From Minisyncoccia bacterium (GTDB taxonomy: Bacteria > Patescibacteriota > Minisyncoccia > SW-4-49-11): a DNA stretch of 64,000 nucleotides. The notes beneath the pieces are model-generated. The model was not told the DNA's origin. It did no database searches and worked only from the letters and a program-made list of their open reading frames with translations. Positions 10,413 through 49,331 of this stretch are shown here, one piece after another (the stretch's first letter is position 1; each line of letters starts with the position of its first letter). The position numbers were made by a program, and so were the translations under genes. The DNA lies in NCBI GenBank assembly GCA_044356725.1, contig JBIKVS010000003.1, positions 4,735-68,734 of the forward strand, in the 5' to 3' direction.

Positions 10413-10504
10413 AGCTATTGTTAATTATTACTAAGTATATAAATTAAGTATATTATATATTAATTATACTACATTTTATAATATAAATCAAGTGTATGTG
10501 TAGG

Positions 10505-10870
10505 GTAAGAAAATTGTGGATTGGGAGTTGTAAATTATAAATTGTGAATGGTGAGTTATTAATTGGGAGTTGGGCATCTGTCTCCCTTCGGAGGGAGTAC
10601 CCGTAGGGGGAGGGTGGATAATGCTTAAAATACTAAAATAAACTATTGTTTGTATTAATATTAAAATCTATCCACCACCGGCACTTCGTGCCACCTCCTC
10701 CAAAGGGGGACAAAATAGGTACAGGCGACTGGAAGGTCGCCCCTACGAATACAAAACACAATGGAGGGATAAACGTTTACCTCCCGTAGGGATGTCTCCG
10801 CTACCAATATAATGTCGGTGGGGGCGCCAACTCTACGAAATTCATAATTTATCATTCATAATTAAAATTA
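10505..10870. repeat. GC-rich hairpin-dense modular element (family copy 1) with degenerate direct repeats at its 5' end
   Basis: The rpsB-ftsW spacer is unusually long (about 450 bp). It holds direct repeats aattgtgNatNggNgagtt x3 (10512-10580), module A gtctcccttcggagggagtacccgtagggggagggtggata (10580-10620), a long-range complement tatccaccacc (10669-10679), hairpins ggcac-ttc-gtgcc and ggcgac-tggaa-ggtcgcc, and module C ggggcgccaactctacgaaatt + ttcataatttatcattcataatt (10820-10865). Confidence 0.6.
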
Positions 10871-16050: not shown

Positions 16051-18522
16051 TTATCGCAACTGTTCTAATTTCAGACGGGCAGGCTCAGCCTTAGGGTCAA
16101 GCTCTAATACCTTTTGATAATTTTGTTTTGCCAAATCAAACTTTTTCTCAATCTCATAAATCTCACCCAGTTTGAAGTATACATTGGTGTAATTTGGGAA
16201 AGTTTCTAATAGTTTATTATATACAGCTATAGCCTCTATATATTGATTATTATTCTGATAAGCTAAGCCCAATAAATACACTAATTCCTGATTAGCTGGT
16301 ATAGATTTTTCATTCACTATCTGCACATATTCTTCTAGAATATCAATCTGCTCTTCATAAGCTTCACTTAAAGATAATAAATCATAATAATTTTTGTAAG
16401 CTTCAGCTGAAAATTTATTTTTATCTATAGTAGTATTGAGAATAGATTTAGCTTTTTCTAATTGTTCTGAATTAATCTTTTCCCCTTTTTGAGCTTGTCT
16501 AGCATAATATTGAGCCTCATAAATATCCCAATCTTGAGATTGAGGCTTCAGGTCTCTACCTTTAGATATAAAGGCTAGGTATTCATTTTCATCTACTTCA
16601 CCATATTGATGTATTAGTGAAGATAGCTCTAATTGCCAATATATGACTCTGCTATCTAGTGTGAATTTAGTTTTATATTCATCAATTAATTCTTGAGTTT
16701 TTTGGATATTATCTTGAACAGTCTTTTGTTTTTCTGGATCTATATTAGATCTCACATTATTCTCATTATTGCTATTGAATAACTCGAATGATTGTGCATT
16801 AATTTTCTTAATCAAAGCTTGAATATACAAATTAGTATATTCAACCATATAAGGAGATTTCATTTGAGCTTGAGATAATAGTTTCACTTGCTCTTCCAAA
16901 TTATCCTGTACTTGACTAGCCCGCACAATATATGCTTGAGATTGTATAATATTATATATTTTACTAGAACCAAGAATAACCAAGGATATTGAAAAAAGAG
17001 TAATAAAAGTAAATAAAGAAGATATAGAAGCTGGAATTGTATTAATATCCAAATTTAATTTGAATATAGGTTTAAAATATTTAGTAAATATATTACTCCA
17101 TAAAACTAAAATAATAATAAATATAACTTTATTAATAATTGAAAATGGTATCAAAAACAATCCCCCTAAACTTAAGATTAAAGGCAATATTTCAACAGGC
17201 ACAGTTTTTTGGATTAGCACAACTCTCAAAATGGATAATAAAACCCATAAAGCTAATAAAATTAATAGCCCAGATACTATAACTCCATTCTTGACTATTA
17301 TATTAATAATTTCATTAAATAAAGTCTCAAAACTAAAGCCTGAGAGTTGTGGAGATATATTATCAGGAGCAAATCTATCCCAAGCATAAATAATATTACC
17401 GCTACCAAACCAAGTATCTGACTGAATACTTTGTCTCATAATATCTAAGCTAATATCTAGACCAGGTTTAGCTATTATGGGATATTCTTGTATTTGAATA
17501 TTATCCTGAAAAGGTCTTATTATCATAGCTGAGATTATCGCTATAATTATTATTCCTGATATAGCCGAAGCCCTAATAGTGATTAGTCTGGACTTAGATT
17601 GCAAAGTATGTCTTGAAGATATTTTTTTAAGATAAAATATAGTATGAACTACTAAATTAAGGATGCTCAATATATACATACTATTACCAGATAGTCGAAT
17701 TAAAACTAAAATATGAATGATAATAGCTAAATAATAAAATACATTAAACACCTTATAAATGAAAGTCTTAGAATTAATCTTGGCTAAAATAGTAAATATG
17801 AAGTTAATAGAAAGCAGGGTCAATAATCCTAATTCCTGAGGAGATTCTGTTAGCCAAGTATTGGTAGGTTGTAATCTAGTTAAGATTGAGAATCTAACTA
17901 ATACATCAGACCAATATCCAGCAATTCCTGATATCCCGGCTCCTACTAAGATTAAAATTGATACAAAAAATGACAATATACTAAGAGCTTTTTGACTTAG
18001 AAATAATTTCAAACCTATATAAAAAACAACCAAAAATCCAATCACTATCCCAGCATCAAAAATTCTAGCCGTACTCCCCCAAAAAGCTAAACGATTTGGA
18101 TTAATAAAAGTAATACCAAATACCGCAAGTCCAGATATTATAAATAAAATATCCCCTAAAGTAATAGCCACTGAATGCTTAATAAGGCCAAATATCCAGA
18201 ATATACTAGCTAAAAGCAAGAATCCAGTTACTCCAAATACAAAAACTATAGCCTTTGGTAATTGCCAAACACTAGACCAGTCTAAAACTATAACAGCTGA
18301 TATAACAGCAAAAGATATAATATTATATAGAACTAATATCCACTGAGAATTGGATAAAGTTCTTGATTTAGGATTTACTTTTGCAATTTGTGATTCACTT
18401 TTAGAACTAGATTTTTTAGAAATATTGGATTTAGTAGTAGATTGTAATTCTACCGATGCTTTTTCCCGCAGATTAATTACAGCCTTTGGCTTAGAGTTTG
18501 ATTTTATTGAATTTAAATTCAT
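16051..18522 (-). CDS. Large polytopic membrane protein with C-terminal TPR repeats (O-antigen-ligase-like/unknown)
   Basis: 823 aa with many predicted TM helices, then clear TPR repeats (LGLAYQNNNQYIEAIAVYNKLLETFPNYTNVYFKLGEIYEIEKKFDLAKQNYQKVLELDP). Confidence 0.5.
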   Translation of the reverse strand: MNLNSIKSNSKPKAVINLREKASVELQSTTKSNISKKSSSKSESQIAKVNPKSRTLSNSQWILVLYNIISFAVISAVIVLDWSSVWQLPKAIVFVFGVTGFLLLASIFWIFGLIKHSVAITLGDILFIISGLAVFGITFINPNRLAFWGSTARIFDAGIVIGFLVVFYIGLKLFLSQKALSILSFFVSILILVGAGISGIAGYWSDVLVRFSILTRLQPTNTWLTESPQELGLLTLLSINFIFTILAKINSKTFIYKVFNVFYYLAIIIHILVLIRLSGNSMYILSILNLVVHTIFYLKKISSRHTLQSKSRLITIRASAISGIIIIAIISAMIIRPFQDNIQIQEYPIIAKPGLDISLDIMRQSIQSDTWFGSGNIIYAWDRFAPDNISPQLSGFSFETLFNEIINIIVKNGVIVSGLLILLALWVLLSILRVVLIQKTVPVEILPLILSLGGLFLIPFSIINKVIFIIILVLWSNIFTKYFKPIFKLNLDINTIPASISSLFTFITLFSISLVILGSSKIYNIIQSQAYIVRASQVQDNLEEQVKLLSQAQMKSPYMVEYTNLYIQALIKKINAQSFELFNSNNENNVRSNIDPEKQKTVQDNIQKTQELIDEYKTKFTLDSRVIYWQLELSSLIHQYGEVDENEYLAFISKGRDLKPQSQDWDIYEAQYYARQAQKGEKINSEQLEKAKSILNTTIDKNKFSAEAYKNYYDLLSLSEAYEEQIDILEEYVQIVNEKSIPANQELVYLLGLAYQNNNQYIEAIAVYNKLLETFPNYTNVYFKLGEIYEIEKKFDLAKQNYQKVLELDPKAEPARLKLEQLR

Positions 18523-18620
18523 TTTATTAATATAATATATTGTATTATATTATATTCTAACATATATTCAGAATTTATCTAAGTGTTTGTATCGGATAAT
18601 TATAAATTATATAATTATCT

Positions 18621-18850
18621 GTCCTCCCTTGGGGGAGGTGTCACCGCAGGTGACGGAGGAGGACTGAGCTAAATTCCCCTCTTGAGGGGTGTCAGGCAAA
18701 AGCCTGACGGGGTGGAAAAATAAATTATGAATGATTAATTATAAATTATGAACCGTAGGGGCGCTGACTCTACGAAATTAATGATTCCTAAGCCTGGTAA
18801 AGCATCCTAAATTTCGCGCGGGTGAGTCCAGGAATTTAATCCCCTCAGCG
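18621..18850. repeat. GC-rich hairpin-dense modular element (family copy 2)
   Basis: Module B gtcctcccttgggggaggtgtcaccgcaggtgacggaggaggac (18621-18663) with outer stem gtcctcc/ggaggac and inner hairpin gtcacc-gca-ggtgac. Further hairpins cccctc-ttga-gagggg and gtcaggc-aaaa-gcctgac. Module C aattatgaatgat.../ggggcgctgactctacgaaatt (18725-18778). Confidence 0.6.
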
Positions 18851-20848
18851 AAGAACGCAACGAAAAGTAAGATCACCAGCTGTGAAACTTGGGGTGTTTA
18901 AGGTTGCAAGAGCAAATATTCCTGAATTAGAAGCTGCATTTGCATTACCACCACGTAAAAAGCCAAAGGCAGTGGTACCTGTGACTGTACCTGCCTGGTA
19001 TTGCCCCATATTCTGACTACTATTCCAACTAGTATTACTTGGTCTAGTTAAATCATAGCTTAAAGTGCCGAAATTAGTTATTGCTGTCCATTGCTGCCAA
19101 AAGGTACCAGAACTGTTATTGGGTTTATCTTGTCCTAATATAGTATCACTTGTCCATTCCCAGGAATTTCCACTTAAGTCCCATATTACTTCTCCATTAC
19201 TAAGGGTATGAGTTCTTCTCTGTCCACTTGGACTAGTATTACCTGTTCCAGAGTATCCATCATTATCATCTGTACTTGCTGACAATAAAAGAGCAGGAGA
19301 GTTATCGGTATGTCCGGACCACAAGCCTCCACTGCCTACTGTTCCTCCTGTCCAGTTTACTCCTTGCGCTTCTATGTTACGAGCTATGGTCATCCATTCT
19401 CTATTATTAATTAAACTTCCTCCTGCTAAGTTACACGCTGTTATAGCATTAGTCTGATTTAGGGAGCCTAGTGGTGGCCCTGCTGCTTGTGTGGTTGCTG
19501 CTACTGTTGATGATCCGGTCTTTGCTTCATATTTCATTACACAAAAGTCTCTAGTACCATATAAACTACTTCCAGGTACTCGGATATAGCCTGTTGGACA
19601 TTGTAGATACGACCAACCTGAAGCAGTACAAACTTGCAATCCCCCATTATTATATCTTAAAGTTCCTACATTAGAGCTAGTACAATTAGTAGTATCATTT
19701 CCAACTCTAATCCCACCATTTACATCTAATCTAGCTTGTGGGGTTGTGGTCCCGATACCTATATTCCCATTACCTAATATTCTCATCCTCTCATTAGCTC
19801 CATTTGCTCCAGTGAAGAATCTTATATCTTGAGCGGTAGCATTGGTAGTAGCTAAGACTAATGGCTGCGCACTTGTTGTACCTAACCTACTACCACTTGT
19901 CCCGTTCCAAGCATCTATAGTTGCATTCCCTGTTAAACTCCAGCCTGAACCTACGCTACTAAGACTTACCTGACTAAACTGTCCACTACTATTAGCTAAT
20001 AAAACTCTATCGAAACCACTTGGAGTTGTAGTATTAGCCACTCCTCCTAAGAGTGATGAGGTGACGGCTGTATTAGAAATTGTAAATCTATTAACACCAG
20101 ATGTACTAAATGTATATTGCTGTCCAACACTCCATAAAGTATTAAAACTTAATCCAAAATAAGTTTGAATAAATGAATTAGCAGAATTATCAGTAAATAA
20201 AGATAGTATATTAGTATTATCTGTATTTCTAATATTAAATGCACCTGCATTATTAGATGTATTTCTGATTGAAAGAACGGGATTATTACCCAAAAAGACT
20301 CCTTCTCCTCCTGAGTTTAGAGAGAAAGAATTGGTACTAGTACCACCATTTGCTACTAATCTCATAGAATTTATAGCTGACATTGCTGAGCCTATTCTCT
20401 TACGAGGGCTGAATATCTCTTCATAAGATCCATTCCCATCCGCATCTAATTGTAATTCTACCCATAAAGAATCATCATTGATAGAGCTAAGAGTTGTATT
20501 TTGACTTCCTAATAAAATTTCAAACCTACCATCAACAATAGATAATAGTGGCGATACTATTCCTGAGTAAGTTGTACTTCCATCTCTTATCTCTTCATAT
20601 ATAGATGTACCCCCAGAGACTACATTGTACAAACTAAACTTAACTCTATATCCTCCATCTGCTAACACTGTCCCATCATTTTTCACAATGGTCCCCGAAT
20701 ACGGTATCTGAGCATTAATACCAGTCCCTGCTAAGACTTTATTATAATTAGATATGATTAAAAATATTATGAATAAGAAAGCAATAACCCATCTTAGATA
20801 TGACTTATATTGTATATTAGCAAGTTTGTAAGATTTAAACACATTCAT
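18845..20848 (-). CDS. Secreted/signal-anchored protein with C-terminal FGE-sulfatase-like (C-type-lectin-fold) domain
   Basis: N-terminal signal anchor; C-terminal roughly 250 aa carry CPTGYIRVPGSSLY..DFCVMKYEAK, GNSWEWTSD, FLRGG and a terminal FRCVLR, resembling the FGE-sulfatase/SUMF1 fold. Paralogous to the C-terminus of the 36614-37978 ORF. Confidence 0.55.
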   Translation of the reverse strand: MNVFKSYKLANIQYKSYLRWVIAFLFIIFLIISNYNKVLAGTGINAQIPYSGTIVKNDGTVLADGGYRVKFSLYNVVSGGTSIYEEIRDGSTTYSGIVSPLLSIVDGRFEILLGSQNTTLSSINDDSLWVELQLDADGNGSYEEIFSPRKRIGSAMSAINSMRLVANGGTSTNSFSLNSGGEGVFLGNNPVLSIRNTSNNAGAFNIRNTDNTNILSLFTDNSANSFIQTYFGLSFNTLWSVGQQYTFSTSGVNRFTISNTAVTSSLLGGVANTTTPSGFDRVLLANSSGQFSQVSLSSVGSGWSLTGNATIDAWNGTSGSRLGTTSAQPLVLATTNATAQDIRFFTGANGANERMRILGNGNIGIGTTTPQARLDVNGGIRVGNDTTNCTSSNVGTLRYNNGGLQVCTASGWSYLQCPTGYIRVPGSSLYGTRDFCVMKYEAKTGSSTVAATTQAAGPPLGSLNQTNAITACNLAGGSLINNREWMTIARNIEAQGVNWTGGTVGSGGLWSGHTDNSPALLLSASTDDNDGYSGTGNTSPSGQRRTHTLSNGEVIWDLSGNSWEWTSDTILGQDKPNNSSGTFWQQWTAITNFGTLSYDLTRPSNTSWNSSQNMGQYQAGTVTGTTAFGFLRGGNANAASNSGIFALATLNTPSFTAGDLTFRCVLR

Positions 20849-20936: not shown

Positions 20937-20945
20937 TGTGGATAA
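20937..20945 (-). promoter_or_regulatory. Perfect DnaA-box 9-mer (TTATCCACA on the minus strand), copy 1 of the conserved motif aattgtggataactttatat
   Basis: tgtggataa is the exact complement of the DnaA-box consensus TTATCCACA; it lies in the divergent intergenic region. Confidence 0.5.
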
Positions 20946-21000
20946 CTTTATATATGTCTATTTCCAGCTTAACGGCTTAACTTAATATTAGATCTTAAAT

Positions 21001-21022
21001 TGTGGATAACTTTATATTGACA
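21001..21022 (+). promoter_or_regulatory. Conserved motif aattgtggataactttatattgaca: DnaA box immediately upstream of a -35 TTGACA, pilin gene 1 promoter
   Basis: tgtggataa at 21001-21009; TTGACA at 21017-21022; a -10-like taatct follows after a 17-nt spacer; about 60 bp upstream of the 21083 start. Confidence 0.5.
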
Positions 21023-21082
21023 AAATAATGTATTTGATTTAATCTATATTTAGAGTTATCATTAACATTACTCAAAACTCAT

Positions 21083-21613
21083 ATGAAAATTTACTCTACT
21101 TCTTCAAGCAAAGGTTTCACCTTACTTGAAATCCTATTGGTGATCGCTGCTATCGGTATCTTAGCTGCTATCGTCTTAGTTGCTATCAATCCTAACAGAC
21201 AACTTGCTCAAGCCCGCAATGCTCAGAGAAGGTCTGATGTTACTACTATTTCTAATGCTGTTTATCAAAGAATTATTGATGATGCTGCAAACAATTTAAC
21301 AACTATGAATACAGCTTTAGTTGATAATTTTGTTTATGCTATAGGTACATCAGGTACAGCAACCACAGTAGAAGCAACTTGTGCCACCCTAACTAATGTT
21401 AATGGAACAACTGCTACTAGGACAATTGATTTAGCTACTACATTAGCACCAAATTTTCTTGCATCAATTCCATTTGATCCCCGTGGTGGAAGTACAGCAT
21501 GTACTGGATATGTAATTACTCAATCCGGAACACCAGAAAATGGTAGAATAACAGTTACAGCTCCAATAGCAGGTAGTGATTTAGCAGGTAGCTCAATATC
21601 TGTAACAAGATAA
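21083..21613 (+). CDS. Type IV pilin (prepilin-type N-terminal cleavage/methylation domain)
   Basis: Leader MKIYSTSSSKG|FTLLEILLVIAAIGILAAIVLVAINPNRQ, a class III signal followed by the hydrophobic alpha1 helix; variable Cys-containing C-terminus. Confidence 0.8.
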   Translation: MKIYSTSSSKGFTLLEILLVIAAIGILAAIVLVAINPNRQLAQARNAQRRSDVTTISNAVYQRIIDDAANNLTTMNTALVDNFVYAIGTSGTATTVEATCATLTNVNGTTATRTIDLATTLAPNFLASIPFDPRGGSTACTGYVITQSGTPENGRITVTAPIAGSDLAGSSISVTR

Positions 21614-21631
21614 TTATTTATCTATAAAATT

Positions 21632-21663
21632 AAAAAGAGATGCTATGTACATCTCTTTTTAAT
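21632..21663 (+). terminator. Rho-independent terminator after pilin gene 1
   Basis: aaaaagagatg-ctatgta-catctcttttt: a 6-7 bp stem followed by a T-run. Confidence 0.5.
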
Positions 21664-21670
21664 TTTCAAT

Positions 21671-21692
21671 TGTGGATAACTTTATATTGACA
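21671..21692 (+). promoter_or_regulatory. Second copy of aattgtggataactttatattgaca (DnaA box + -35), pilin gene 2 promoter
   Basis: tgtggataa at 21671-21679; TTGACA at 21687-21692; 17-nt spacer then TAATAT as the -10. Confidence 0.5.
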
Positions 21693-21752
21693 ATTTAAGA
21701 TATATAATTTAATATATATATAGAGTTATAATTAACATTAATCAAAAATAAT

Positions 21753-22253
21753 ATGAAAACTTACTCTACTTCATCAAGCAAAGGTTTCACCTTACTTGAA
21801 ATATTATTAGTTATCGCTGCTATCGGTATCTTAGCTGCTATCGTATTAGTTGCTATTAACCCTAATAGACAACTTGCACAAGCTCGTAATGCTCAGAGAA
21901 GATCTGATATTAATACTATACTGAATGCTGTTTATCAAAAAATTATTGATGAAGGTACCTCCGGAAGTACTGTCACATTAACTGCAATTTCTACTACAGC
22001 AGGAGAAGTTAATAGAAATAACACTACAGGCTCAACCGAATGTACAGGAACTGCTGTTAATATGTCATCTGTAGCATCAGATGCTGGAGCTGATGTTGTG
22101 CCTACTTATTTAGCAGCTATTCCTCAGGATCCATCTGAACCAGGAACTTCAAATTGTAGTGGATATCTAATTTCTAAAGACGGGAATAATAGAATAACTG
22201 TCACTGCTGACAATACCGAGTTAGTAACTCCAGACTTCTTTGTAACAAGATAA
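21753..22253 (+). CDS. Type IV pilin paralog (tandem duplicate)
   Basis: The first roughly 55 codons are almost identical at the nucleotide level to the 21083 gene (MKTYSTSSSKG|FTLLEILLVIAAIGILAAIV...); the C-terminal half has diverged. Confidence 0.8.
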   Translation: MKTYSTSSSKGFTLLEILLVIAAIGILAAIVLVAINPNRQLAQARNAQRRSDINTILNAVYQKIIDEGTSGSTVTLTAISTTAGEVNRNNTTGSTECTGTAVNMSSVASDAGADVVPTYLAAIPQDPSEPGTSNCSGYLISKDGNNRITVTADNTELVTPDFFVTR

Positions 22254-24447: not shown

Positions 24448-24590
24448 AGACGGAAGAAAGGTTATACTTATTTACTATATTATATTGTACCTAAAATATA
24501 GTAAATAATCAATATATTGTATGAGATGATGAAATCGTAGACATTGAGTCAAGGAATGAAAGTAATCCATAGAGTATCAGACAATTAACT

Positions 24591-24846
24591 GTCCTCCCTT
24601 CTACCTACGGCAGACAGGTGGGAGAGGTGGCCCCGTAAATGGGTCGGGAAAACTGGAGTTTTCCTGTGGAGGAAGGCAACGAGGTCAAAGACCGAGTGTT
24701 GGAAACCGTGGCTTTCCAAGGAACAAATCCCATTTGCGAAGACGGAGGAGGACTTCAGGCGGACGTAAGCTCCCACCTATGGTCTATACTTCATAATTCA
24801 ATCTCTATCCACCCTCCCCCTTCCGGTACTCCCTCCTAAGGGAGAC
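24591..24846. repeat. GC-rich hairpin-dense modular element (family copy 3, expanded)
   Basis: Module B 5' half gtcctccctt (24591) and 3' half gacggaggaggact (24741-24757) are separated by a GC-rich insert of about 140 nt. Module A is in inverse orientation: atccaccctcccccttccggtactccctcctaagggagac (24808-24846). The AT motif ttcataattca lies adjacent. The ORFs predicted here on both strands are judged spurious. Confidence 0.6.
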
Positions 24847-24901
24847 AAAATACATCTCAATATTAAAGTATTGTCTACGATGTTTCTAATCTTTTTAAAT
24901 G

Positions 24902-25396
24902 TTACAAAATTTCTTGAATTTTTTTATATACTTGTTCTAATATTAGCTTGTCCTCCAGAGATATTTTCTTTAGAACAAATGCCTGTGCTTTTTGCCCTAT
25001 AAATCTCTCTGCTCTAATCCCAACTCTCACTCTAGTTACAGCTGGAGAAATATGCTGAAATATCGAGTCTACACCATGATGGCCTCCACTACCTCGATTA
25101 GTTTGAATTTTATATTCACCTAAAATAATATCTGAGTCATCATGAATAATTATAATCTCACTATCTTGAATATTATAATATTGCTTCACTGCTAAAACAG
25201 CTTGTCCAGAGTTATTCATATAGGTATGTGGTTTGAGATAGATATGATCTCCTTGTTTATAAATTGACCCTAAAAATTGTTTTTTATAGCCAAAATCTGC
25301 TCTATTAGTAATGATATCTAAGAATTCAAATCCTATATTATGATAGGTATCTCTGTAATTATCTCCAATATTACCAAGTCCTACTATTAATTTCAT
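24902..25396 (-). CDS. pth: Peptidyl-tRNA hydrolase
   Basis: N-terminal MKLIVGLGNIGDNYRDTYHNIGF and other Pth family motifs; 164 aa. Confidence 0.85.
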   Translation of the reverse strand: MKLIVGLGNIGDNYRDTYHNIGFEFLDIITNRADFGYKKQFLGSIYKQGDHIYLKPHTYMNNSGQAVLAVKQYYNIQDSEIIIIHDDSDIILGEYKIQTNRGSGGHHGVDSIFQHISPAVTRVRVGIRAERFIGQKAQAFVLKKISLEDKLILEQVYKKIQEIL

Positions 25397-34549: not shown

Positions 34550-34650
34550 TAAATTTATTATACTGTAAGTATATTATTTTGTCAACAAAATAAATAGAGT
34601 GATGCAGTAGAACTATATCACTCTATTTTAATACTAAATACAAGTATATA

Positions 34651-36552
34651 TTAATCCAGAGTACCGTTGGAGTTATATTTAGCTATAAAGGAATCTGTTC
34701 CTCCTATACTAGTTAGCTCTTGAATAATGCCACCTTGTCCAAAATTAGATAAACCTTGGAAATAACCTACTACTAAAACATTACCATCTATATCCACATC
34801 AACGCCTCTACCAGAGTCTGCACCTGATCCACCAGCTCTCCTAGCCCAGGCTAATGTTCCATTGGCATTATATTTTGCTATAAAGGCATCTTGTGCTCCT
34901 GCACTAACTAATGATGTCTGATTAGATTCACCTTGACCAAAAGTTGCCGTACCCTCAAAGTATCCAGTTATTATGGAACTTCCATCTGTATTTATGGCAA
35001 TATCAATAGCTAAATCTCCTCCATTTCCTCCAGCTTTCTTAGCCCAAGCTAATGTTCCGTCTGAATTATATTTAGCTACATATATGTCTGCTTGTACTCC
35101 TGTACTGACTAATGTTGTTTCATTTGACTCACCCTGTCCAAAGACTGCTGTCCCCCAGAAAAATCCAGTTACTATACTACTCCCATCACTATGCATACCT
35201 ATATCTCTAGCCCAGTTTATATCTGCTCCTATTGACAAGACTTTTTTTGCCCATATAATACTTCCATCTGAATTGTATTTAGCTATATAGCTATTATAAG
35301 TTCCTGAGGCAGTTAAAATTGTCTGATTAGGGTCACCCTCACCGAAAATAACAGAATTAGTGCTAGCAAACTGTCCTGCAACAACAAATGTTCCATCTAT
35401 ATTATTACTAATTCCATATCCCCATTCCCAAGAATTACCACCTATTCTTTTAGACCAGGCTAATGTACCATTAGAATTATATTTAGCTATAAAGGTATCT
35501 GTAGCACCTCCACTAACAAGAGTAGTAGCATTGGCTTCTCCCTGTCCAAAGACTGCTGTCCCCTCAAAGTATCCAGTTACCAAAGCACTGCCATCAGAAT
35601 TAGCAGCTAATCCGAAGCCATATTCTCTTTCACCAGTACCACCTGCTCTCTTAGCCCAAACTAAATTACCATCCGTAGCATATTTTGCAACAAATATATC
35701 TCTACTTCCTGCACTGACTAGAGTTGTGGCATTAGGTTCTCCTTGTCCAAAGACTGCCGTACCTGTAAATGAACCTGTTACAATACTTGTCCCATCTGCA
35801 TATCCTATAATATAGTTACCCCCATAATCTTCACTAGTACCACCTGCTCTTTTGGCCCATGCCAAAGTTCCACTGGGATTATATTTAGCTATAAATATAT
35901 CTCTACTCCCTGCACTGACTAAAGTTGTAGCATTAGGTTCTCCTTGTCCAAGGATAGTAGTACCTTCAAATGAACCTGTAACTAAAACACTACCATCACT
36001 TAACTTAGAGACCCCTCCACTTTTATCCAAACCACCAGATCCCCCAGCTTGGACTAGAAAAGTTTGAGTTGGAGTTATAGTATTGATAACCAAATCTTGC
36101 TCTAATTCTGCTTTATTAGCTCTGAGACTAATCTGATTATTCGAGTCTTTAGCAATTTCATAACCTGTTTCTCCAACTATTGTATCGGTATCTTTGGGAA
36201 TTTCACTTAAGTATGTAGGGACCAACACTCTTAAATCTATCTTACCATCACAGTATCCTGTACTCGGTAGTGTATCTTCTATAGTAAGATTGCCTGTATC
36301 ACATATCTCTATATATGTATTAGTAGGTATGTTTAAATCTACAAATCCCCTATTAACTGCATTATATTGCTGTAATGCATTATAGATATCATTAATTGAG
36401 ACTTGTCTCTCAAGATTTCTAGATTGTGAGATTTGTCTACTAGGATTTATAGCTACTAGAACAATACTAGATAATATACCTATTACAACTATGGTCAAAA
36501 GTATCTCTAATAATGTAAATCCTTTATTACTTATCTTATTATATTTATTCAT
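34651..36552 (-). CDS. Prepilin-type N-terminal domain fused to SBBP-like beta-propeller repeats (large pilin-like adhesin candidate)
   Basis: Leader MNKYNKISNKG|FTLLEILLTIVVIGILSSIV; the C-terminus has about ten repeats of ...GTAVFGQGE.N.TTLVS.G..D.FIAKYN..G.L.WAK.AGG..., matching the SBBP beta-propeller repeat pattern. Confidence 0.65.
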   Translation of the reverse strand: MNKYNKISNKGFTLLEILLTIVVIGILSSIVLVAINPSRQISQSRNLERQVSINDIYNALQQYNAVNRGFVDLNIPTNTYIEICDTGNLTIEDTLPSTGYCDGKIDLRVLVPTYLSEIPKDTDTIVGETGYEIAKDSNNQISLRANKAELEQDLVINTITPTQTFLVQAGGSGGLDKSGGVSKLSDGSVLVTGSFEGTTILGQGEPNATTLVSAGSRDIFIAKYNPSGTLAWAKRAGGTSEDYGGNYIIGYADGTSIVTGSFTGTAVFGQGEPNATTLVSAGSRDIFVAKYATDGNLVWAKRAGGTGEREYGFGLAANSDGSALVTGYFEGTAVFGQGEANATTLVSGGATDTFIAKYNSNGTLAWSKRIGGNSWEWGYGISNNIDGTFVVAGQFASTNSVIFGEGDPNQTILTASGTYNSYIAKYNSDGSIIWAKKVLSIGADINWARDIGMHSDGSSIVTGFFWGTAVFGQGESNETTLVSTGVQADIYVAKYNSDGTLAWAKKAGGNGGDLAIDIAINTDGSSIITGYFEGTATFGQGESNQTSLVSAGAQDAFIAKYNANGTLAWARRAGGSGADSGRGVDVDIDGNVLVVGYFQGLSNFGQGGIIQELTSIGGTDSFIAKYNSNGTLD

Positions 36553-40874: not shown

Positions 40875-43800
40875 CTATTTTAATCTTAACAAATAAGTTC
40901 CACTCTGGTTATTATAAACCTGAAACCTCCCTCCAACTACTATCTTTCCATCTGATTGGATAGCGATAGTATTGACAGTCTCATTAAATCCTGTACCTAT
41001 CTCAAAACTATTATCTCTACTTCCATTACTATTGAGTCTTATTATTCTATTAGCTGATGCTCCTCCTTGATCTATAATTTCTGTATAATCATATTCTTCA
41101 TTATACTCTAACTCTCCCTGATATAACTCAAACCCTCCTCCTACTACTATCTTTCCATCTGATTGGATAGCGATAGTATTGACAGTCTCATTAAATCCTG
41201 TACCTATCTCAAAACTATCATCTCTACTTCCATCATTATTTAAACGAATTATTCCATTAGCTGAGGATCCTCCTTGATCTATAATTTCTGTATAATCATA
41301 TTCTTCATTATACTCTAACTCTCCCTGATATAGGTTAAAATATCCTCCAACTACTATCTTACCATCTGATTGGATAGCGATAGTATTGACAGTACCATCA
41401 AATCCTGTGCCTATCTCAAAACTATTATCTCTACTTCCATTACTATTGAGTCGGATTATGCTATTAGCTGATGCTCCTTTATAATTGCTAAAGTCTCCTC
41501 CTACTATTATCTTTCCATCACTTTGGATAGCGATAGTATTGACAGTCTCATTAAATCCTGTACCTATCTCAAAACTATCATCTCTACTTCCATCACTATT
41601 TAAACGAATTATTCCATTAGCTGAGGATCCTCCTTGATCTATCATTTCTGTATAATCATATTCTTCATTATACTCTAACTCTCCCTGATATAGGTTAAAA
41701 TATCCTCCAACTACTATCTTACCATCTGATTGGATAGCGATAGTATTGACAGTACCATCAAATCCTGTGCCTATCTCAAAACTATTATCTCTACTTCCAT
41801 TACTATTGAGTCGGATTATGCTATTAGCTGATGCTCCTTTATAATTGCTAAAGTCTCCTCCTACTACTATCTTTCCATCTGATTGGATAGCGATAGTATT
41901 GACAGTACCATCAAATCCTGTGCCTATCTCAAAACTATTATCTCTACTTCCATCACTATTTAAACGAATTATTCCATTAGCTGATTCTCCTTTATAATTG
42001 CTAAAACCTCCTCCTACTATTATCTTTCCATCACTTTGAGTTTTAACTATATCGACATCTGAGTCAAAAGAAATTTTATTGGTGTATTTAATTCTAAGTG
42101 ACAATCCACTATCAAAGTCAGTAGATCTACTACCGTCCAAATTAAATTTTAGAATACTTCCGATAGTAACGTCAATTGCTCCTCCATCAGTATTAAAGTT
42201 AGAAATCCATTCCTCATTTTCAAAATCTATCGTCTGCATATCAATTAATTCTCCATCTGCATTATATACATTATTAACTGTTGTAAACAAAGCTCCTCCT
42301 AGAAAAATAGTGTTATTAACTAATAACATTCTATCCGCGATATTAGGTGTTAATAAACTATTCATATCTAAACTAAAACTTGTATCTCTACTTCCATCAC
42401 TATTTAGTTTTAAAATATTTCCTCCAAAATCTTCAATTTCCCCAGAAAAATTTCTAAATAAGATAAATATAGTACCATCGCTTTGTTCATAAATATCTTG
42501 TATATAAAAGTATGTGTTTATACTTGGTAAAGATATATCTGAATTAAATGATAAATCTTTTTCACCATTGCTTGTTAACCTAATTAATCTATTTACTGAA
42601 TTGTTTTGATATGTTCTAAAATCTCCTCCTACCAATATCTTGCCATCAGTTTGTAACAATATACTGTTGACTACACCTCCACCAAACCAATCACCAAACC
42701 CTGACCCCATATCAAAGCTGCTATCTCTACTACCATCACTATTTAATCGAATTATTTTATTTGCTCCCAAGCCATTATAACTAGTAAAATTTCCTCCTAT
42801 CAATATCTTGCCATCTGACTGAACAACCAATTTATACACAGACCTATCTATACCTGAAAAACCCGTGCCTATATTAAAGCTTGTATCTCTACTTCCATCA
42901 CTATTTAATCGGATTATTCTATTTGCTCCTACACCATTATAACTAGTAAAATTTCCTCCTACTATTATCTTGCCATCTTCCTGTATGGCTAAAGTATTGA
43001 CAGAATCATCCCCGGCCGTTGTTCCATCCAGACTCCCCCTAAATCCTGTCCCTATATTAAAGCTTGTATCTCTACTTCCATCACTATTAAGTCTAACTAT
43101 TCCATTAGTTGATTCTCCTAGATACTCATTAAAATCTCCTCCTACCAATATCTTTCCATCTGACTGTTCCTTTATATCAAATACACAGCAACTTATGTCA
43201 CCTGAATTAAAACTTTCATCTATATCTCCATTTTGATTAATTCTAAATATATTATTGATATAATCACTATTAATTGTATTTACTAGTATATTACCATCAC
43301 TTTGTAATTCGAAAACAGTAGATTGTATGAGTTCAGATTCTAAAAAATTGTCAATATCAATAATGTACCTATTGGAATCAGAAATTAATTCAAACCCAAA
43401 ATTTCCTGTGTAAAAATCTTTATCTATTATTCCTGTGGCTGTGTTTAAAGGAGGATTTATACCATCATCTACATCATCTGTATCTGGAGGGATAACTGAT
43501 GGATTTGGAGTAGTTGGGATATTAGGTGTAATTGGATTTATAGGTAAATTAGGTACACTAGGAATACTTGGGACATTCGGTATACTTGGTTTATTAGTTA
43601 TACTTGGTAATTCTATTGGCTTATTATTTGTAATAGGTGGTTTATAAACTTCTATTGGAGAATATCTCAAAGGCTGACTTCTTATACCCCTATATTCTCC
43701 CCTTATATTATTAACTATTGTTGCTATACGTTGTTCTCGTTTTTCCTCATTCTCTCTTGTTACTACTGTGCTATTTCTATCATCTACATCTTGATCTCTG

Positions 43801-43958
43801 TTATTCTCTACTTTACTATTTTCTATCTTATTAACTGATTCTATATTTAATTCATCAATATCTGTATTTATATTATATATAATATATACTCCTAATACTA
43901 ATCCTATACTGATTCCTATTGTTAATAGGATATTTTTTAAATTTACTTTTCTCTGCAT
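40875..43958 (-). CDS. Giant surface protein with delta-60-type beta-propeller repeats and a Pro-rich stalk
   Basis: N-terminal TM; Pro-rich linker (PSIPNVPSIPSVPNLPINPITPNIPTTPNPSVIPP); then more than 10 repeats of IIRLNSDGSRD.SF.IGTGF.GTVNTIAIQSDGKI.VGG.F, matching the delta-60 repeat pattern. Confidence 0.6.
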   Translation of the reverse strand: MQRKVNLKNILLTIGISIGLVLGVYIIYNINTDIDELNIESVNKIENSKVENNRDQDVDDRNSTVVTRENEEKREQRIATIVNNIRGEYRGIRSQPLRYSPIEVYKPPITNNKPIELPSITNKPSIPNVPSIPSVPNLPINPITPNIPTTPNPSVIPPDTDDVDDGINPPLNTATGIIDKDFYTGNFGFELISDSNRYIIDIDNFLESELIQSTVFELQSDGNILVNTINSDYINNIFRINQNGDIDESFNSGDISCCVFDIKEQSDGKILVGGDFNEYLGESTNGIVRLNSDGSRDTSFNIGTGFRGSLDGTTAGDDSVNTLAIQEDGKIIVGGNFTSYNGVGANRIIRLNSDGSRDTSFNIGTGFSGIDRSVYKLVVQSDGKILIGGNFTSYNGLGANKIIRLNSDGSRDSSFDMGSGFGDWFGGGVVNSILLQTDGKILVGGDFRTYQNNSVNRLIRLTSNGEKDLSFNSDISLPSINTYFYIQDIYEQSDGTIFILFRNFSGEIEDFGGNILKLNSDGSRDTSFSLDMNSLLTPNIADRMLLVNNTIFLGGALFTTVNNVYNADGELIDMQTIDFENEEWISNFNTDGGAIDVTIGSILKFNLDGSRSTDFDSGLSLRIKYTNKISFDSDVDIVKTQSDGKIIVGGGFSNYKGESANGIIRLNSDGSRDNSFEIGTGFDGTVNTIAIQSDGKIVVGGDFSNYKGASANSIIRLNSNGSRDNSFEIGTGFDGTVNTIAIQSDGKIVVGGYFNLYQGELEYNEEYDYTEMIDQGGSSANGIIRLNSDGSRDDSFEIGTGFNETVNTIAIQSDGKIIVGGDFSNYKGASANSIIRLNSNGSRDNSFEIGTGFDGTVNTIAIQSDGKIVVGGYFNLYQGELEYNEEYDYTEIIDQGGSSANGIIRLNNDGSRDDSFEIGTGFNETVNTIAIQSDGKIVVGGGFELYQGELEYNEEYDYTEIIDQGGASANRIIRLNSNGSRDNSFEIGTGFNETVNTIAIQSDGKIVVGGRFQVYNNQSGTYLLRLK
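40930..42060. repeat. Near-identical intragenic tandem DNA repeats (360-bp super-unit made of 207-bp plus 153-bp sub-units)
   Basis: The 22-mer ggatagcgatagtattgacagt recurs at 40958, 41165, 41372, 41525, 41732 and 41885 (spacings 207/207/153/207/153). Long stretches are identical, e.g. about 41281-41510 against 41641-41870. Confidence 0.8.
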
Positions 43959-49233: not shown

Positions 49234-49331
49234 GTCCTCCTCCGTCACCTACGGTGACACCTCCCCCAAGGGAGGACAGTTCTTATCTTGTCTCCATTTG
49301 GAGGGAGTACCCGCAGGGGGAGGGAGGACAG
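49234..49331. repeat. GC-rich hairpin-dense modular element (family copy 4)
   Basis: Module B in reverse orientation, gtcctcctccgtcacctacggtgacacctcccccaagggaggacagtt (49234-49281), is the reverse complement of the 18621-18663 copy with one mismatch. Module A gtctccatttggagggagtacccgcagggggagggaggaca (49290-49330). It sits between convergent genes. Confidence 0.65.

Follow-up and report, generated by a model that had tools for sequence, protein, structure and literature searches.

A cluster of hairpin repeat modules, probably of REP/BIME or MITE-cargo type, in an intergenic spacer of a Minisyncoccia bacterium

Location and composition of the repeat block

The stretch of DNA analysed here, hereafter the window, comprises 64 000 nt of a Minisyncoccia bacterium contig (JBIKVS010000003.1), with a GC content of ~31 % and nearly all of its genes on the minus strand. 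An FGE-sulfatase-like gene of 667 aa (18845–20848, minus strand) forms the upstream flank and a TPR gene of 823 aa (16051–18522, minus strand) the downstream flank of a 322 nt spacer (18523–18844), which contains a cluster of GC-rich hairpin modules termed copy 2. With a probability of roughly 65 %, copy 2 is a non-coding cluster of repeat modules that resembles repetitive extragenic palindromes (REPs) and bacterial interspersed mosaic elements (BIMEs), or the cargo of miniature inverted-repeat transposable elements (MITEs), and belongs to a family of selfish or near-neutral repeats specific to Paceibacteria-type members of the Candidate Phyla Radiation (CPR).

The neighbouring genes had been described in a first-pass annotation as a membrane-TPR gene and an FGE-like gene, both on the minus strand, and this is borne out by TPR domains in the former and by PF03781 in homologues of the latter. 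The same annotation had drawn the repeat from 18621 to 18850. The repeat part extends to 18779; the sequence from 18780 onward has no match in other copies and runs to the stop codon of the FGE-like gene; 18780–18844 is the 3′ region of that gene. The repeat part is ~185 nt long, is without an ORF, and consists of modules that are all found elsewhere in different combinations. The pattern of copy 2 is far above chance, with 0 matches expected in shuffled sequences. On five other metagenome contigs the locus is 100 % identical and hence uninformative on population variants.

At the promoter-side edge of the block lies an AT-rich near-perfect palindrome, GATAATTATAAATTATATAATTATC (18595–18619), which is kept in L050 and L051 (L-numbers denote related genome or metagenome loci compared with the window). 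It is followed by module B, whose 44 nt sequence, as quoted in the first-pass annotation, is present at 18621–18664 on the plus strand. Module B belongs to a class of units called X-modules below, as judged from its fold and from a match of 59.6 bits (E 1.9e-15) to the covariance model of that class, R1. Its first hairpin is CCTCCC-TTGG-GGGAGG (18623–18628 pairing with 18633–18638, loop TTGG), its second is GTCACC-GCA-GGTGAC (18640–18645 pairing with 18649–18654, loop GCA), and a purine tail, GGAGGAGGAC, follows at 18655–18664. Both of these inner hairpins, which had been predicted, are present in the minimum-free-energy fold (computed as DNA), in which the tail is single-stranded, and both covary across 48 copies. 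The outer stem gtcctcc/ggaggac, proposed to enclose ctccc/gggag, cannot coexist with hairpin 1; the two are alternatives rather than nested, because both use the CTCC at 18624–18627. In several X-module subtypes the tail is complementary to the 5′ strand, in a register that differs between subtypes.

An 11 nt linker, TGAGCTAAATT (18665–18675, plus strand), is also found downstream of B modules in other genomes. The two additional perfect hairpins reported beyond it are CCCCTC-TT-GAGGGG (18676–18689) and GTCAGGC-AAAA-GCCTGAC (18691–18708); jointly, and with the tail GGGGTGGA, they make up a second X-type module, D (18676–18716, plus strand), to which R1 matches weakly (11.5 bits over 18676–18712). 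Close relatives of D (85–100 % matches) are found in L008, L010, L015, L022, L033, L040, L041, L044 and L051. Module C had been described as aattatgaa repeats plus CGTAGGGGCGCTGACTCTACGAAATT, and both parts are present, being common to the copy at 10.8 kb in the opposite arrangement. The AT-rich segment at 18717–18753 (plus strand) carries two AAATTATGAAY repeats, at 18722 and 18743. This motif occurs eight times in the window against 1.3 expected, five of the eight being within blocks, and the segment adjoins D and GTAG-containing modules in L006, L014, L021, L044, L051 and L068. The GTAG-containing module CGTAGGGGCGCTGACTCTACGAAATT (18754–18779, plus strand) is a variant of a REP-like module, F. 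Blocks of the copy 2 type have two kinds of edge, one marked by AATTTCGTAGAG and one by the AT-rich palindrome.

The end of the block is located ~12 nt upstream of a promoter-like site for the TPR gene (18554–18582, minus strand; TTAGAT, 17 nt, TAGAAT with TG), assigned by consensus match only. A promoter-proximal motif, ATACAAACACTT(G/A)AT, is common to 18575–18590 (TPR gene) and 10470–10500 (rpsB) of the window and to the regions upstream of rpsB in L043, L045 and L046. It overlaps the −35 box of unrelated genes, is present in filled and empty sites alike, and may be part of an extended promoter or a relic of an element end.

Structure of the X-module

The modules A and B of the first-pass annotation, the reverse complement of its third module, and D share a single plan of ~40–45 nt. 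An X-module opens at its 5′ end with GTC. Hairpin 1 follows, made of a pyrimidine strand of 6 nt and its complementary purine strand around a loop of TTGG or TTNGG; after T or TG come the GC-rich hairpin 2, which varies, and finally a tail of the form GGNGG(N)GGA(C/T). In the alignment from which R1 was built (A1; 48 distinct X-module copies) both hairpins covary: 92.7 % of cells are paired, and 7 of the 12 pairs have changed on both sides, in 103 cells. None of 500 shuffles was as good, and when the 3′ partners were slid by 1–3 columns pairing was only 51–58 %.

Hairpin 2 is the variable part. It differs among 41 copies with the exact B frame. Over all copies it occurs in compensated variants such as GTCACC/GGTGAC, GGCC/GGCC, GCCC/GGGC and GGCAC/GTGCC, ranging from 4 bp GGCC stems to hairpins of 30 nt, and its loops are mostly GTA, GCA, GAA or GTCA. 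Additional hairpins are often inserted into the loop of hairpin 1 and into hairpin 2.

A conserved GC-rich sequence of ~100–150 nt, designated Y, with the core GGAAACCNACGGTTTCCAACACTCGGAG..CTCCTCGTTGCCTTCC..GGGAAAAC..GTTTTCCCGACCCC, is inserted in hairpin 2 of A- and B-type modules, and stem changes in it are compensated between copies. It is found at 24600–24745 of the window, at L051:6186–6299 and L024:2405–2496, in the MITEs of L094, L110 and L093, and at L006:4464–4547 and L011:1116–1196; in the last two loci it is free-standing beside a tRNA gene, within an apparent tandem repeat. No Rfam match to Y was found. Separately, the X-module tails GGTGGATAA resemble a DnaA box, being one base off TGTGGATAA. 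Perfect 9-mers of TGTGGATAA are located at 20937–20945, 21001–21009 and 21671–21679 of the window; for two of the three the surrounding sequence is a 22-mer repeat, AAAATTGTGGATAACTTTATAT, situated in the divergent spacer that precedes the FGE-like gene.

Related blocks in the window and in other genomes

Four spacers of the window contain GC-rich islands (10.5–10.9, 18.6–18.8, 24.5–24.9 and 49.2–49.3 kb), and R1 gives six strong matches (10580+, 10670−, 18621+, 24807−, 49234− and 49290+) in addition to the weak one over D. In the ftsW–rpsB spacer an A-type X-module (10580–10619, plus strand, 54.5 bits) faces an inverted partner (10670–10711, minus strand, 54.8 bits) across a 50 nt AT-rich spacer, and an F module, TTCGTAGGGGCGACCTTCCAGTCGCCTGTAC, which is REP-like in having GTAG followed by a palindrome, lies beyond them (10719–10749, minus strand). 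The block at 24518–24898 (minus strand) is a complete MITE. It contains an X-module (24807–24846, minus strand) and a B frame (24589–24753, plus strand) whose interior has been replaced by a Y insert of ~150 nt. At 49.2 kb a B-type X-module (49234–49277, minus strand), which matches the B of copy 2 with 97.9 % identity over 47 nt, stands head-to-head with an A-type X-module (49290–49329, plus strand) 12 nt away. The F module has the general form GTAG-GGGCGACC-TTTCA-GTCGCC and is present in 20 copies in 485 kb.

Further copies, which the first-pass annotation had suggested looking for, are numerous, and its description of a dispersed, modular, GC-rich repeat family is supported by the four window blocks and by many in related genomes. 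In a scan of 185 579 species, one genome each, the exact B frame TGTCCTCCCTT..CGGAGGAGGAC was found at 37 loci, all of them in metagenome-assembled genomes labelled Parcubacteria, Paceibacteria or Minisyncoccia, plus a few labelled Saccharibacteria. The ribosomal protein S2 encoded in the window is 91 % identical to an S2 labelled Candidatus Paceibacterota. With R1, genome loci totalling 246 kb yielded 88 matches of more than 30 bits, and metagenome loci totalling 302 kb yielded 74 matches. Literature searches on CPR with REP, MITE or REPIN returned nothing relevant. Many of the module blocks adjoin tRNA genes (L006, L009, L011, L012, L016 and L033), and there are 15 tRNAs in 18 element-rich loci.

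Filled and empty orthologous spacers

Syntenic loci, gathered via homologues of S2 and of the FGE-like protein, show the same spacers with and without blocks. The spacer between the FGE-like and TPR genes is filled in the window and in L050 (322 nt each, one base differing) and in L051 (622 nt), and empty in L052 (96 nt), where it holds only an ordinary AT-rich hairpin. The ftsW–rpsB spacer is filled in the window (455 nt) and L044 (547 nt) and empty in L043 (98 nt) and L045 (101 nt); that between pth and a 197 aa gene is filled in the window (454 nt) and empty in L051 (69 nt); and the rnhB–mraZ spacer is filled in L043 and L044 and empty in the window. X-modules were absent from the syntenic 20 kb regions of more distant relatives.

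Module make-up also differs between filled sites. The B frame, the AT repeats and D of copy 2 are all present in L051, where, however, hairpin 2 has given way to an insert of ~150 nt and additional modules lie towards the FGE-like gene. Of the ftsW–rpsB spacer the right half is common to the window and L044, while the left half is built of different modules. Because orthologous spacers are filled in some genomes and empty in others, and because their modules differ, the blocks are gained, lost and rebuilt within intergenic spacers. Of the six differences that separate copy 2 in the window from its counterpart in L051, four amount to a single flipped hairpin loop: the loop of the second hairpin of D (18698–18701) reads AAAA in the window and TTTT in L051, with the stems unchanged. 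This is a DNA-level event, of the kind made by recombination within a palindrome.

MITEs as carriers of X-modules

Inverted ends of ~28 nt with the pattern GATGAG-N-T-NN-ATCGTAGACAA delimit the block at 24.5 kb. A metagenome scan for this end recovered ~45 low-GC loci, in which unrelated flanks meet one end, TGAATAAGATGAGATGCATCGTAGACAA. Of 18 inward-facing pairs of ends, 17 delimit elements of 251–491 nt and one (L069) an element of 1143 nt. The interiors of the 17 MITEs consist of an AT-rich leader, an X-module, an AT-rich spacer, an inverted X-module and, optionally, further modules, without coding capacity; they are thus a variable set of hairpin modules and not deletion derivatives of an insertion sequence (IS). 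The 1143 nt element (L069:153–1295) is an IS with inverted ends of ~28 nt and a 5 bp duplication, TTAAT. It encodes a 342 aa protein with helix-turn-helix and rve domains (Pfam rve E 9.6e-16), for which the best NCBIfam match is IS481, at 179 bits against a curated cut-off of 224 (IS3 scores 111). This IS481-like element is the likely parent of the MITEs.

Across the 18 elements the target duplication is a perfect 5 bp in 12, with 4 of 5 bases matching in two more, and in 14 a TTGACA-like hexamer directly follows the duplication. The MITE of the window has AACAT (24899–24903) against AATAT (24513–24517), matching at 4 of 5 bases, and the −35 box TTGATT (24507–24512) 5 bp from the element; the corresponding empty site, TTTTGTAATATATTGATT, is carried by L051. 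Insertion just upstream of −35 boxes suggests either a target choice or selection for position. Besides 24507–24517 of the window, sites at which a MITE stands against a TTGACA-like hexamer are seen in L036, L064, L068, L086, L093, L106, L110 and L114, among others. The IS itself occupies a position of this kind as well. On its inner side the inverted end reads TAGACAA or TCGACAA, which resembles the target TTGACAA. L082 had been considered as a case of a MITE inserted into the IS. There (L082:559–1291) the IS copy breaks off at residue 201 and adjoins the left end of a MITE lying upstream of rpsL, an arrangement by which insertion is not cleanly proven.

For the siblings of copy 2, the MITE is therefore established as a vehicle of X-modules. 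The route by which copy 2 itself spread may have been a MITE whose ends were lost, or another form of module-level insertion or recombination; copy 2, like ~90 % of blocks, has no IS-type ends. Profiles of both MITE arms found no match in 18500–18900 and, within the window, matched the 24.5 kb block only. When the ends and a duplication of copy 2 were sought by comparison with L051 and L052, the boundaries were ambiguous.

IS-derived MITEs of other bacteria, such as Correia elements and RUP, are comparable to the element at 24518–24898 and to the 17 metagenome copies in having ends shared with an IS, a 5 bp duplication, a small size, a noncoding interior and empty orthologous sites. They differ from these siblings in that the interior here is modular and not an IS deletion derivative, and in that the sites here lie directly upstream of −35-like hexamers. 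Copy 2 is like MITEs in being small, non-coding and matched by an empty orthologous site (L052), but unlike them in showing no inverted ends or duplication.

Placement relative to genes

X-modules lie outside long ORFs in 87 of 88 cases. Between co-directional genes, 23 point in the direction of the genes and 21 in the opposite direction, with a further 10 in divergent and eight in convergent gaps. Adjacent X-modules are arranged tail-to-tail (11), head-to-head (4) or as direct repeats (11). Blocks that have no inverted ends also adjoin −35 boxes.

A connection with type III toxin–antitoxin systems was considered and rejected, since MazF/PemK-like genes occur in three loci only, none of them in the window, and module orientation is mixed. 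Seven such genes in L015 and L024 each have flanking blocks. Their arrays, at L015:182–6577 (five genes within 8 kb), L024:2733–3936 and L011:4442–4732, have GC-rich module blocks in between and are without an obvious upstream protein antitoxin gene.

Interpretation and relation to known elements

Selfish or near-neutral repeat DNA is the most likely interpretation of copy 2, and a dedicated cellular function is probably lacking. Copy 2 adds a new member to the REP/BIME/MITE kind, from a phylum for which literature searches turned up no such elements. Blocks are gained, lost and rebuilt in spacers, usually settling where they do little harm, between the end of a transcription unit and the next −35 box. 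One route of spread is established: pairs of X-modules ride inside MITEs of 250–490 nt whose ~28 nt ends are identical to those of an IS481-like IS with a DDE transposase, and these MITEs insert with a 5 bp duplication directly upstream of TTGACA-like hexamers. Copy 2 may have arisen in this way and lost its ends, or may be the product of some other module-level event. A REP/RAYT-like process (RAYT, REP-associated tyrosine transposase) or recombination between copies may have contributed, because blocks without ends abut −35 boxes, the F module is abundant and inserts occur in loops.

Several observations weigh against this interpretation. In a set of 62 X-module blocks chosen without regard to the end motif, IS-type ends are missing altogether from 56, whereas five blocks carry a single end and one carries both, and no transposase gene was found in the 64 kb window; the MITE may be just one carrier, or may itself be a landing pad for modules. 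At non-Watson–Crick stem positions G.T outnumbers A.C by 21 to 3, a count that is inflated by related copies and by a model slightly favouring G.U. This excess suggests folding of a single, specific strand, in the form of either RNA or single-stranded DNA, which speaks against simple junk because junk would not need strand-specific folding. Lastly, the block shared between the window and L051 is 94 % identical, where neighbouring genes are 82–94 % identical and their third codon positions 68–90 %; the block shared with L044 is 95 % identical, where third positions of rpsB are 79 %. Free decay of the block is thus not seen, and either constraint or homogenisation between copies is indicated. 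Strand bias and conservation are left over by the selfish or near-neutral interpretation.

The REP elements and BIMEs of Enterobacteria and Pseudomonas, including RAYT-mobilised REPINs (paired REPs), share with these blocks short GC-rich imperfect palindromes, extragenic location, clusters of direct and inverted copies with conserved linkers, and presence that differs between relatives. The GTAG-plus-palindrome arrangement is also found here, as the F module within clusters. An REP is, however, one palindrome with a 5′ GTAG, whereas an X-module is two hairpins plus a tail, and the present hosts are AT-rich CPR genomes of ~1 Mb in which the carrier is a DDE-transposase MITE. It is nonetheless conceivable, although unlikely, that the elements are REPs in the strict sense, GTAG-marked single-stranded hairpins spread by a RAYT (a Y1 HUH transposase), with the IS481-type MITE an incidental host. 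The abundance of F, in which GTAG is directly followed by a GC-rich palindrome, is in favour of this, as are the recurrence of CGTAG in hairpin 2 loops and at block edges, the BIME-like clustering in both orientations, the landing of inserts in hairpin loops (for example after the GTA of hairpin 2), the absence of IS-type ends from 90 % of blocks, and the G.T bias, which would suit a single-stranded DNA substrate. On the other hand, a 5′ GTAG at the foot of the palindrome is seen in the F and GTAG-containing modules (10719–10749 and 18754–18779) and not in the X-modules B and D, there is no orientation bias with respect to gene direction (a proxy for replication direction), and no RAYT or IS200-like ORF was found by phmmer in 393 kb around the elements, a weak search with approximate query sequences that did not cover a whole genome. 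RAYTs are usually single-copy in a genome. The BOX elements of Streptococcus pneumoniae offer a looser parallel: they too are intergenic, are predicted to fold strongly and are built of modular sub-units (boxA, boxB and boxC) in varying number, but they have no known sequence relation to these blocks, a different module logic and a host in a different phylum.

Somewhat less probable again is that X-modules are small structured RNAs or RNA domains, binding for example proteins or the ribosome via the Shine–Dalgarno-like tail, and that blocks are arrays of RNA genes. Whalefall-1 (RF01762), the only Rfam family that matches the modules (E 0.004–0.02), is one reason to consider it. Scores are 18.7 bits at 18619–18664, 21.4 bits at 24811–24848, and 19.0 and 13.8 bits for the 49.2 kb pair, all below the threshold of 37. 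Rfam in gathering mode reported only tRNAs in the window and 18 element-rich loci, and in E-value mode the four blocks gave sub-threshold Whalefall-1 plus chance matches to microRNA and small nucleolar RNA families. Whalefall-1 was filed as a stand-alone small RNA (sRNA), with a whale-fall metagenome as its sole source, and a CUUG tetraloop often caps its second hairpin (Weinberg et al. 2010, PMC2864571). The architecture described by those authors (PMC2864571) is matched by the fold and covariation of the X-module: the first hairpin has a pyrimidine run, a 4 nt loop and a purine run (e.g. GUCCCUCC-UUGG-GGAGGGAC), the second is variable, and the flanks are AT-rich. In addition, the 16 Whalefall-1 seeds form head-to-head pairs of two subtypes, 35–50 nt apart on one contig, an arrangement like that at 49234–49329 in the window. 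The second hairpin here is shorter, usually with a GNA triloop instead of the CUUG tetraloop, and similarity in primary sequence is weak; a sequence-only profile of X-modules scores the Whalefall-1 seeds at 1–3 bits. Whalefall-1 is thus taken as the closest described relative, and copy 2 is not placed in that family, because the architecture is the same but the sequence-only profile barely recognizes the seeds.

Covariation of both stems with an excess of G.T over A.C, hairpins of variable length at fixed positions, which recall the expansion segments of functional RNAs, and conservation above that of synonymous sites would all suit an RNA. A multi-copy extragenic repeat in freshwater CPR genomes that is carried as cargo by MITEs with target duplications differs from a stand-alone sRNA, however, and modules show no preference of orientation with respect to transcription, a conserved upstream promoter and a conserved downstream terminator were both not found, and the same sites in close relatives are without blocks.

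It is rather doubtful that X-modules and the orphan Whalefall-1 form a functional device, one that folds on one strand, is selected, is placed directly upstream of promoters and is delivered in part by a −35-homing IS481-type MITE, serving either to insulate or, by way of anti-Shine–Dalgarno-like and Shine–Dalgarno-like strands, as a decoy that binds proteins or ribosomes. Slightly more doubtful still are blocks that act upstream of promoters as selected DNA or RNA insulators, whether roadblocks or protein platforms, separating units or tuning the −35/UP region. The exact distance of 5 bp between the MITE and a TTGACA-like hexamer downstream of it in 14 of 18 elements, the blocks without ends that likewise abut −35 boxes, and conservation exceeding that of synonymous sites are consistent with insulators, but the position is explicable by a transposase target preference combined with tolerance of insertions there, and the orthologous promoters of close relatives work without a block. 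The first-pass annotation had raised the possibility of a terminator or attenuator, here of the FGE-like gene, and despite the location in the 3′ region of that gene and the strong folding of the 322 nt spacer (z = −4.8) this is very improbable, as no terminator-like site (a stem followed by a T-run) was found on either strand in 18300–19000, modules occur in both orientations and also between divergent genes, and ordinary AT-rich hairpin terminators serve in relatives, both at this site (L052, which does without the block) and, with a T-run, elsewhere, e.g. after rnhB.

CPR bacteria (Patescibacteria) have small, streamlined genomes that are regarded as poor in repetitive DNA. Here, nonetheless, a rich, layered repeat system of two-hairpin modules, GTAG palindromes, a loop-landing insert of ~150 nt, MITEs and an IS481-like parent fills up to several hundred bases of single spacers. 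Mobile repeat DNA of this sort is ordinary, whereas the family itself is newly described. The orphan Whalefall-1 motif of 2010 gains a probable context, as extragenic repeat modules of AT-rich uncultivated bacteria and not as a stand-alone sRNA gene. For annotation, the blocks should be masked as repeats and not be called sRNA genes or terminators. The insertions are usable as strain-level markers for freshwater Paceibacteria, and an element inserting 5 bp upstream of −35 hexamers could rewire promoters.

Other repeats in the window

Two further kinds of repeat are present in the window. Long in-frame tandem repeats with periods of ~153–207 nt occupy 34650–36550 and 40875–43958, within two large ORFs (633 and 1027 aa) on the minus strand, which are probably repetitive surface proteins. 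An 88 % identical duplication, 20992–21282 against 21662–21952, spans the beginnings of two adjacent genes together with the sequence ahead of them, and the duplicated segment encodes a prepilin-like N-terminus (KGFTLLEILLV).

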